Notes: generated by a model not told the origin, from the letters alone. Counted from the first letter of the stretch, positions 56,688 to 57,830 are shown. The stretch: 64,000 nt of DNA from an uncultured bacterium (GCA_903893315.1 CAITLU010000013.1:155026-219025); one strand, 5' to 3'. Program-made: numbers and translations.

Positions 56688-57830
56688 TCAGACGGGTACG
56701 ACTTCGACTATCTCGAGCCCGTAACCGACCAGATTGGGAAGATGGAACGGGGAATTGGTAAGCAGGCGAATCTTGCGTACGCCGAGGTCGCGCAGAATCT
56801 GGGCGCCGATTCCGTAGTCCTTGAAGCTGGCCAGGCGAATGGCCGGATTGGTCGTCACCGGACCGTCGCCGCCTTCGCCGAGCATTTCGGCGCCGCGACC
56901 GTAACGGCGCACATAGAGCACCACGCCGCAGCCGTCAGCCGCGATCTTCTCCATCGCCGAGTGCAATACGGCTCCGGTGTTGCGATGCGTGTAGGCGAAG
57001 ACGTCGCCCGGAAGATACTCGGCGTGGGCCCGCACCAGCACCGGCTTCTCCGGATCGATGGTTCCCCGCACCAGCGCCAGGTGCTCGCCGTCTTCGACAC
57101 TCGAGTGGTACACGTGAGCCGCGAACTCGCCGCCGTACTTGGTGGAAAGACGCGCGGTCGCCTTGTGCTCGACGAGCGATTCGTTCTGCAGACGATACTG
57201 GATCAGATCGGCGACAGTCGAGATTTTCAGACCGTGAGTGCGCGCAAAACTGACCAGATCGGGAAGGCGCGCCATGGTGCCGTCCTGGTTGAGAATCTCG
57301 CAGATGACGCTGGCCGGCTTCAGACCCGCAAGGCGACACAGATCTACGGAGCCCTCGGTCTGCCCCGTCCTTACCAGCACTCCGCCATCACGAGCGCGCA
57401 GCGGAAAGACGTGGCCGGGGATCACGAAGTCGCAAGGTTCGGCGTCGTCATCGGCGGCGCGGCGGATGGTACGGCTGCGATCGGTGGCGGTGATACCGCC
57501 GCCGCTGCAACCCCGCGCGTCGATCGACACCGTGAAGCCGGTACCGAGCGGAGCGGTGTTCTCCTGCACCATCATGCGCAGTCCGAGGCGCTGCATGCGG
57601 TCCTCGGTTATCGGCATGCAGATCAGGCCGCGGGCGTGGCGCGCCATGAAGTTGATCTGCTCGGCGGTGACTTTCTCGGCCGCCACCACGATGTCGCCCT
57701 CGTTCTCGCGGTCCTCGTCGTCCATCAGGACGATCATGTGACCGCGACGGATCTCTTCGATGGCTTCGGCTATGGGAGAAATCGGCGACACCGACCCATC
57801 TCGATCAACGCTGGGAGAATTCGCGAACAT
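56688..57830 (-). CDS. ribBA: 3,4-dihydroxy-2-butanone-4-phosphate synthase fused to a cysteine-less GTP cyclohydrolase II-like domain (RibBX-type RibBA)
   Basis: The RibB half is intact (VLMDDEDRENEGDIVVAAE, TVSID, RTGQTEGSVDL). The C-terminal half is GCHII-like, but the zinc-ligand region reads AHAEYLPGDVFAYTHRN. The canonical form is ...ECLTGD..S.RCDCG.. Confidence 0.85.
   Translation of the reverse strand: MFANSPSVDRDGSVSPISPIAEAIEEIRRGHMIVLMDDEDRENEGDIVVAAEKVTAEQINFMARHARGLICMPITEDRMQRLGLRMMVQENTAPLGTGFTVSIDARGCSGGGITATDRSRTIRRAADDDAEPCDFVIPGHVFPLRARDGGVLVRTGQTEGSVDLCRLAGLKPASVICEILNQDGTMARLPDLVSFARTHGLKISTVADLIQYRLQNESLVEHKATARLSTKYGGEFAAHVYHSSVEDGEHLALVRGTIDPEKPVLVRAHAEYLPGDVFAYTHRNTGAVLHSAMEKIAADGCGVVLYVRRYGRGAEMLGEGGDGPVTTNPAIRLASFKDYGIGAQILRDLGVRKIRLLTNSPFHLPNLVGYGLEIVEVVPV

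Follow-up and report, generated by a model that had tools for sequence, protein, structure and literature searches.

We examined a 64,000-nucleotide stretch of DNA from an uncultured bacterium (GCA_903893315.1, CAITLU010000013.1:155026-219025), hereafter the window, in which the minus strand carries a gene for a two-domain riboflavin-pathway protein at positions 56688..57830. The open reading frame (ORF) list, Pfam matches, homologs and G+C content at third codon positions (GC3) agree on a gene of 380 codons plus stop with an ATG start. The N-terminal domain (residues 22-212; 57195..57767) is RibB, the DHBP synthase (DHBP, 3,4-dihydroxy-2-butanone 4-phosphate; PF00926, E 2.9e-84), and the C-terminal domain (residues 223-379; 56694..57164) is a predicted pseudo-enzyme resembling GTP cyclohydrolase II (GCHII), which we call the X domain (PF00925, E 5.4e-41). 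The protein start, MFA.SP..DRDGS, is kept among homologs, and the gene has a coding signature of GC3 0.78 in a window of 64.8% G+C. All elements of the gene described below lie on the minus strand.

Upstream of the gene, a riboswitch-free spacer of 57 bp (57831..57887, minus strand, from the ORF list and Rfam) reaches up to a gene for an amino-acid permease. Rfam returned no flavin mononucleotide (FMN) riboswitch anywhere in the window at the gathering threshold, none for RF00050 in 57700-59700 even at E<=10, and none at seven related loci. A scan of 56400-58200 for sigma-70-like promoters and terminators gave nothing relevant to the gene above background. A first-pass annotation of this DNA had placed the ORF at the same coordinates and had noted a 57-bp gap with no room for an FMN riboswitch; the ORF and the gap agree with ours to the nucleotide. 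A 673-residue antisense ORF (56379-58400, plus strand) spans the entire gene and reaches into the permease gene; its GC3 shows no sign of coding, and we take it for one of the long spurious ORFs that are common in DNA of high G+C content.

In the X domain, the loop that holds zinc in true GCHII enzymes is remodeled. The former zinc loop, AHAEYLPGDVFAYTHRNTG (residues 268-286; 56973..57029), was located from HMMER alignments, in which the segment RAHAEYLPGDVFAYTHRNTG matches the zinc-site segments of Escherichia coli RibA (2bz0) and Mycobacterium tuberculosis RibA2 (4i14) without gaps, HSECLTGD......CDCG standing opposite HAEYLPGD......RNTG. Tyr272 (57015-57017), Arg283 (56982-56984) and Thr285 (56976-56978) thereby replace the zinc ligands Cys54, Cys65 and Cys67 (E. 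coli numbering), and neither alignment contains a shifted cysteine near the former site. Further substitutions place Lys337 (56820..56822) at the position of catalytic Arg128, His363 at that of Lys154 and Tyr310 at that of Glu92. A shortened variable loop, GAEMLGEGGDGPVT (residues 313-326; 56853..56894), stands in place of the segment that bears Lys101, Tyr105, Gln108 and Thr114; relative to the E. coli and M. tuberculosis enzymes the gap is about seven residues, and Lys101 and Tyr105 fall inside the deletion.

To place these changes in a wider frame, we used a signature of 25 positions that are near-invariant among 95 cysteine-bearing GCHII domains, themselves obtained by searching 1.84 billion cluster representatives; the signature reads R H E C G D C C E G R K Y Q T N D R D T N N P x K. 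The window protein keeps 12 of these positions (R49, H51, E53, G57, D58, G93, R94, N118, D129, T149, N150 and P152) and loses the other 13 (C54, C65, C67, E92, K101, Y105, Q108, T114, D126, R128, N151, K153 and K154). Profile scores divide in the same way: the X domain exceeds the gathering threshold of PF00925, GTP_cyclohydro2 (140.4 bits versus 23.3), and falls short of the cut-off for TIGR00505, ribA (96.6 versus 205.85). Its best match in the PDB is M. tuberculosis RibA2 (4i14; E 7.4e-30, ≈47% identity), and the match to the RibBX protein of Acinetobacter baumannii is at 4.5e-12.

According to Kaiser 2002, as cited in the review PMC10366380, the loss of any one zinc cysteine of E. coli RibA abolishes both zinc binding and enzyme function. 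The same review describes Arg128 as contacting the alpha-phosphate and as the residue proposed to form the guanylyl intermediate, and zinc as dispensable for pyrophosphate release. The first-pass annotation had read the C-terminal half as a GCHII homolog stripped of its zinc site, and the PF00925 match and the gap-free alignments bear this out. The residue comparisons that it proposed confirm that the cysteines are truly replaced and that a lysine sits at the Arg128 position; its choice of Lys130 as a diagnostic residue was mistaken, as E. coli RibA has phenylalanine at 130 and the relevant lysine is Lys154. Its prediction that the domain lacks GCHII activity appears sound, given the loss of the zinc ligands and the precedent of cysteine-less two-domain proteins from other organisms that act solely as DHBP synthases.

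We next consider how far these features extend beyond the window protein. The family sample comprises the 120 best homologs (62-94% identity) and the window protein, 121 sequences in all; the named homologs are Candidatus Binatia, with a few labeled as "Deltaproteobacteria", Myxococcales or Limnocylindrales metagenome-assembled genomes. All 120 share the replacement motif HAE[YF].PGDVF.....[RSG][ND]T, and the former Cys54, Cys65 and Cys67 positions are Tyr in 119, Arg in 100 and Thr in all 121 sequences, respectively. The equivalents of R49, H51, E53, G57, D58, T149, N150 and P152 are invariant. Among 51 positions that are at least 90% conserved in cysteine-bearing domains, the family retains 23, has relaxed another 23 and has switched five to a new fixed residue (C54Y, T56P, C67T, A117T and K154R), and eight further positions are conserved solely within this family. 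The His363 codon (56742-56744) is peculiar to the window protein, as the Lys154 position is Arg in 118 of the 121 members and His in this one alone.

Two sub-groups can be told apart within the family. Proteins of ≈380 residues, including the window protein, have Lys at the Arg128 position and the short loop, whereas those of 405-410 residues have Arg there and a longer, unconserved loop with 8-10 extra residues; over the whole family the position is Lys in 79 and Arg in 41 of the 121. From this difference it follows that the zinc site was lost before the loop was trimmed.

The X domain is not decaying. The replacement motif runs through the whole family, the mean frequency of the commonest residue per alignment column is 0.77 in the X domain and 0.78 in the RibB domain, and the ratio of nonsynonymous to synonymous substitution rates (dN/dS; Nei-Gojobori) is 0.035-0.040 for the X domain versus 0.060-0.067 for the RibB domain, as measured against two close relatives (94% and 92% amino acid identity, dS ≈0.65-0.70). 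These data demonstrate very strong purifying selection. Consistent with this, no truncated RibB-only ortholog occurs among the 120 best matches.

The RibB domain passes the cut-off of TIGR00506, ribB (246.8 bits versus 177.45), and aligns to the E. coli and Salmonella RibB proteins without gaps. The acidic loop MDDEDRENEGD is present, as are Glu42, Asp46, Cys71, His140 and Glu178. In the RibB of Vibrio cholerae, the metal ligands are His154 and Glu39 (PMC9305975); Glu42 of the window protein corresponds to the latter, and the former is replaced by Gln157 (57360..57362), giving GQTE for GHTE. This glutamine is found in all 121 family members and at nine loci that encode cysteine-bearing RibBA proteins, versus none of the 59 classical RibBX loci among the matches listed, all of which have GHTE. 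The cysteine-bearing hosts with GQTE are Legionella quinlivanii, L. bozemanae, SAR324, Tepidisphaerales, Phycisphaerales, Eremiobacterota and Dehalococcoidia, and the variant is also assigned to Planctomycetota; rib genes adjoin RibBA in about half of all cysteine-bearing loci. Because the other catalytic residues are present and cysteine-bearing RibBA proteins share the glutamine, the RibB domain is probably active, and we infer that Gln157 is a lineage marker compatible with RibB activity. We considered a dead RibB domain, marked by Gln157, as the principal interpretation and rejected it, because this glutamine also occurs in cysteine-bearing RibBA proteins such as those of Legionella.

An AlphaFold2 model built from 46 family sequences (pLDDT 78, pTM 0.75) is confident outside the N-terminus, a single loop of RibB, and the segments 271-281 and 309-338. 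The last two, with pLDDT <50, correspond to the zinc site and catalytic loop of true GCHII. Foldseek pairs the model best with RibA2 of M. tuberculosis (4i14) and RibBX of A. baumannii (6mnz); the fold also matches 2bz0, and the RibB part matches RibB structures with TMt 0.87-0.93. The same two proteins are the closest solved structures to the whole protein by sequence (4i14, 1.8e-91; 6mnz, 5.6e-88).

The gene stands apart from other riboflavin genes. A tblastn search of the window with E. coli RibA and the M. tuberculosis GCHII domain found the X domain only, and tblastn of Pseudomonas RibD, RibE, RibH, NusB and RibA against the window and 88 loci placed ribD, ribE, ribH, nusB or ribA at none of the 11 loci of the lineage (the 64-kb window and 10 loci, ±10 kb). 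Pfam annotation of the window ORFs likewise contained no rib genes, and the neighborhoods of six homologs had none. The cluster names of 20 representatives gave no RibA from Binatia, the named ones belonging to Chloroflexota and Actinobacteria, and the homologs of the closest cysteine-bearing representative (P0141) came from Planctomycetota, Acidobacteriota and Myxococcales, with none from Binatia. Strong selection on the RibB domain would serve no purpose if the pyrimidine branch of the pathway were missing, and we therefore infer that GCHII, or GTP cyclohydrolase III (GCH III) together with a formamide hydrolase, is encoded elsewhere in the genome.

The conserved neighbors in the lineage are housekeeping genes: glmS, a glmU-like gene, and genes for PagL, a thioredoxin-like protein and a DEAD-box helicase. 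In the window, genes for a class-III aminotransferase, a 119-residue SCP2-like protein and the amino-acid permease lie directly upstream of the ribBX gene (57888-60973, minus strand), and a carboxylesterase gene lies directly downstream (54902-56551, minus strand). This order is unchanged in the closest relatives (L086, L087 and L088). At a Binatia locus with 80% identity (L001) all four genes are missing and ribBX adjoins PagL; the four are lineage-specific insertions into a glmS…ribBX-PagL-thioredoxin-helicase backbone. At least two Candidatus Binatia loci came from the scan of GTDB species genomes (L006, 79% identity; L007, 61% identity), and the host lineage is the candidate phylum Binatota. 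Our search of the literature on Binatota and riboflavin found no specific statement about riboflavin in this phylum.

Elsewhere in the window, a multiheme cytochrome cluster (25788-40754, plus strand) resembles a module for extracellular electron transfer. It contains two MtrC/MtrF-like cytochromes with paired CXXCH motifs (30481-31971 and 39045-40754), a cytochrome c7-like protein (34610-35938), two NHL-repeat beta-propeller proteins (25788-29183 and 32296-33486) and a 684-residue ORF without a Pfam match (35925-37979), all on the plus strand. The cluster lies 16-30 kb from ribBX, a proximity that is probably coincidental and is worth recording since RibBX was first described in flavin-secreting Shewanella. 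A plus-strand gene for ribulose-phosphate 3-epimerase, which makes the RibB substrate ribulose 5-phosphate, follows at 40848-41558, and after it comes a tRNA (41657-41730, plus strand), the sole Rfam match in the window.

Taken together, these observations make it likely, in our judgment, that the protein is a monofunctional DHBP synthase with a GCHII-derived pseudo-enzyme domain that is probably structural or regulatory. The X domain retains the fold of GCHII and some of the strand that binds nucleotide/phosphate (R-x-H-x-E-[Y]-x-P-G-D and T-N-x-P). It no longer has the zinc site or the loop with Lys101 and Tyr105, and Arg128 and Lys154 are gone as well, losses that should leave it unable to open the imidazole ring of GTP. 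Retained by strong purifying selection, it would most likely play a structural or regulatory part toward the RibB domain to which it is joined, by scaffolding the dimer, by allosteric tuning or by both, judging by the proteobacterial RibBX proteins. Several points weigh against this reading. Of the two residues through which the protein binds the catalytic Mg2+, one (His154) is Gln in the window protein, and we found no characterized Gln-type DHBP synthase in the literature searched. The activity of the Binatota-lineage members is a prediction from sequence, and the regulatory role proposed for the X domain is borrowed from Shewanella RibBX. The segments of the old active site are poorly predicted, so a residual pocket could not be read from the model, and a second GCHII gene of the organism was not found within the 64-kb window.

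The opposite view, that this is a genuine bifunctional RibBA whose cysteine-free site, non-zinc or differently liganded, makes 2,5-diamino-6-ribosylamino-4(3H)-pyrimidinone 5'-phosphate (DARPP) from GTP, seems to us extremely improbable. It can draw on the greater closeness of the X domain to active M. tuberculosis GCHII than to the A. baumannii X domain, on the eight invariant GCHII positions listed above, on the conservation of the Tyr/Arg/Thr replacements themselves and on the lack of another GCHII gene in the window or the lineage loci searched. All three zinc ligands are gone, however, in a site where a single loss abolishes the activity of E. coli RibA (PMC10366380); Arg128 has become Lys and Lys154 His, the Lys101/Tyr105 loop is deleted, Glu92, Gln108 and Thr114 are changed, and the TIGR00505 score is less than half the cut-off. 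Moreover, all of the cysteine-less homologs tested are GCHII-inactive (PMC10012899; PMC3509567). It is very unlikely, too, that the X domain is a functionless remnant drifting toward loss, with the RibB half alone mattering. The relaxation of half of the GCHII-conserved positions, the deleted catalytic loop and the low AlphaFold2 confidence in the former active-site segments would fit such decay, but the dN/dS of the domain lies below that of RibB, its per-column conservation over the 121 sequences equals that of RibB, new residues have become fixed at five former catalytic positions, eight positions are conserved in this family only, and the 120 best matches include no RibB-only ortholog.

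An abnormal N-terminal domain with some other function, which would explain the position of the gene outside a rib operon, is improbable. The catalytic metal has just two protein ligands, of which the residue replaced here is one (PMC9305975), Gln157 is invariant in the family, and rib neighbors occur at 0 of 11 loci; yet the nine cysteine-bearing RibBA loci with Gln include those of cultured Legionella and rib genes adjoin about half of cysteine-bearing loci, the acidic loop and the remaining catalytic residues of RibB are unaltered, the cut-off of TIGR00506 is exceeded, and the carbonyl oxygen of Gln could plausibly serve as a Mg2+ ligand. A sub-case of the monofunctional synthase, and no contradiction of it, is that the X domain senses a ligand, such as GTP, GMP or a pathway intermediate, and allosterically couples DHBP synthesis to the purine-derived branch, or that it retains the zinc-independent half-reaction from GTP to GMP and pyrophosphate. 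We regard this as a tentative possibility. The R-x-H-x-E-x-x-P-G-D and T-N-x-P motifs are invariant in the family, pyrophosphate release by RibA needs no zinc (PMC10366380), X-domain mutations in the RibBX of Rhodopseudomonas palustris change flavin-dependent physiology, and the Shewanella X domain modulates RibB (PMC10012899). On the other side, Arg128 is Lys in the sub-family of the window protein, the 92-94 and 101-114 segments are unconserved, and ligand binding by the X domain is putative. More speculative still is the proposal that the Binatota protein arose independently from a Gln-type RibBA and that its zinc pocket was rebuilt, as a conserved Tyr/Arg/Thr site beside the phosphate-binding strand, into an allosteric module that senses a nucleotide or intermediate. 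If so, a dead GCHII domain would have been kept to regulate DHBP synthase in separate lineages, by convergence.

The joining of RibB to a dead GCHII domain is already known as RibBX, and NCBI names these proteins DHBP synthase. New here are a separate, probably independently derived Binatota lineage, the fixed Tyr/Arg/Thr remodeling of its zinc loop, its orphan genomic position, the very strong selection that maintains the dead domain, and the Gln metal ligand of RibB. Pipelines of the JGI and KEGG style label such proteins "DHBP synthase/GTP cyclohydrolase II", a label by which metabolic reconstructions of Binatota and of related uncultured bacteria from soil and sediment would wrongly show the GTP branch of riboflavin synthesis as complete. 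A second, probably independent lineage that keeps a dead GCHII domain also strengthens the case for a real function of the X domain, and the Binatota domain, being less diverged and closer to RibA, is a form in which that function could be studied.

Among known systems, the bifunctional RibBA proteins are close in sequence. M. tuberculosis RibA2 is the best PDB match both overall (1.8e-91) and for the X domain, and the Gln-type RibBA proteins of Planctomycetota, SAR324 and Legionella share the GQTE metal site and group with the window protein in a tree of the N-terminal domain; the relatives of the closest cysteine-bearing representative are named as Planctomycetota, Acidobacteriota and Myxococcales. 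RibBA proteins differ in that the CX2GX7CXC zinc site, Lys101, Tyr105, Arg128 and Lys154 are present and the GCHII is active, whereas all of these residues are absent from the window protein. It also falls below the cut-offs of all the bifunctional equivalogs (PRK09311, 429.3/569; PRK09319, 405.6/764; PRK09314, 334.2/432; PRK12485, 332.5/693; PRK09318, 190.5/486). A cysteine-bearing RibBA-like protein of 545 residues (P0124), fourth-best in score, has two separate stretches that match the X domain, which may reflect duplication of a GCHII-like region or an extension at the C-terminus.

Loss of the zinc site is not confined to one lineage. Arabidopsis thaliana RIBA2 is a bipartite protein whose zinc residues are gone and which has DHBP synthase and no GCHII activity in vitro and in E. 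coli complementation (PMC3509567); the likeness to the window protein, drawn from its description only, is in a bipartite layout without zinc-binding residues, and it differs as a eukaryotic, plastid-targeted paralog beside the bifunctional RIBA1 that reflects an independent loss. Among the best 150 cluster representatives (50% identity), 53 do not have Cys-Cys-Cys at the zinc positions, some of them being fragments or alignment gaps, and most of the 53 show many differing replacement patterns (AST, CDT, SGT, DKT and others), so this fold seems to have lost GCHII chemistry, and with it the zinc site, repeatedly and in different phyla. Examples without the triad include P0144 and P0275 (Actinobacteria bacterium ATB1), P0161, P0150 and P0215, and the actinobacterial cysteine-less lineage is likewise named plain DHBP synthase by NCBI. 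In a neighbor-joining tree of the N-terminal domain (198 columns, 85 sequences, 500 bootstraps), the Binatota lineage comes out as a clan in 84% of replicates, classical RibBX does so in 87%, and a joint clan of both cysteine-less groups that excludes cysteine-bearing proteins appears in 2%, values that come from neighbor-joining only and from sampling biased toward query-like sequences. The C-domain tree joins three clans at one node and does not separate shared from independent loss. The N-domain tree and the Gln157 shared with cysteine-bearing RibBA together favor descent from a Gln-type RibBA that lost its zinc site independently of proteobacterial RibBX.

The closest functional counterparts are the proteobacterial RibBX proteins themselves. 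RibBX was described in 2013, with the A. baumannii structure (6mnz) released in 2019, as a functional RibB joined to a GCHII-inactive RibA-like domain that has lost the zinc-binding and ring-opening residues and that modulates RibB in some way (PMC10012899, citing Brutinel 2013 and Nouwen 2021). The RibBX proteins of Aeromonas salmonicida and Shewanella oneidensis act solely as DHBP synthases by experiment (PMC10012899), and X-domain mutations in that of R. palustris alter flavin-dependent physiology (preprint); the first-pass annotation had described such proteobacterial variants correctly. The window protein has the same two-domain layout as the RibBX of S. oneidensis, A. baumannii, A. salmonicida, Bradyrhizobium and R. 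palustris, an intact RibB followed by a GCHII-like domain without zinc or ring-opening residues; it matches 6mnz over its whole length (E 5.6e-88; fold TMt 0.76), and by analogy it would be expected to act likewise, as a DHBP synthase whose X domain is non-catalytic.

The window protein nonetheless differs from them in several respects. The X domain is distant from that of A. baumannii RibBX (4.5e-12) and nearer to active GCHII (M. tuberculosis, 7.4e-30). The zinc-loop replacement is variable (N/S/D..) in classical RibBX and fixed as Y..R.T in the Binatota lineage. Against NF010626/PRK14019 (cut-off 513), 6mnz passes with 548.8, whereas the window protein (441.7) and two of its relatives, P0006 (441.7) and P0111 (470.2), fail. 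The classical set, defined as the 59 cysteine-less loci among the matches listed in the scan of GTDB species genomes, has the operon ribD-ribE-ribBX-ribH-nusB, with ribH within 10 kb at 55 loci, nusB at 54, ribE at 49 and ribD at 46, versus 0 of 11 in the Binatota lineage. At four proteobacterial (or so-labeled) loci (L051, L057, L064 and L071), a cysteine-bearing standalone ribA lies 3-4 kb from classical RibBX, in Pseudomonas (L057) in the order ribD, ribE-ribBX-ribH-nusB-thiL-pgpA, ribA, an arrangement that matches the literature model of RibBX with a separate RibA. The RibB Mg ligand is His in 59 of these 59 listed loci and Gln in the window family, and the hosts are Proteobacteria for the former and Binatota for the latter. 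Overall, the term RibBX-type, as used in the first-pass annotation, fits as a description of how the protein would work but not as membership of the proteobacterial RibBX family, from which it differs in lineage, motif and genomic context.

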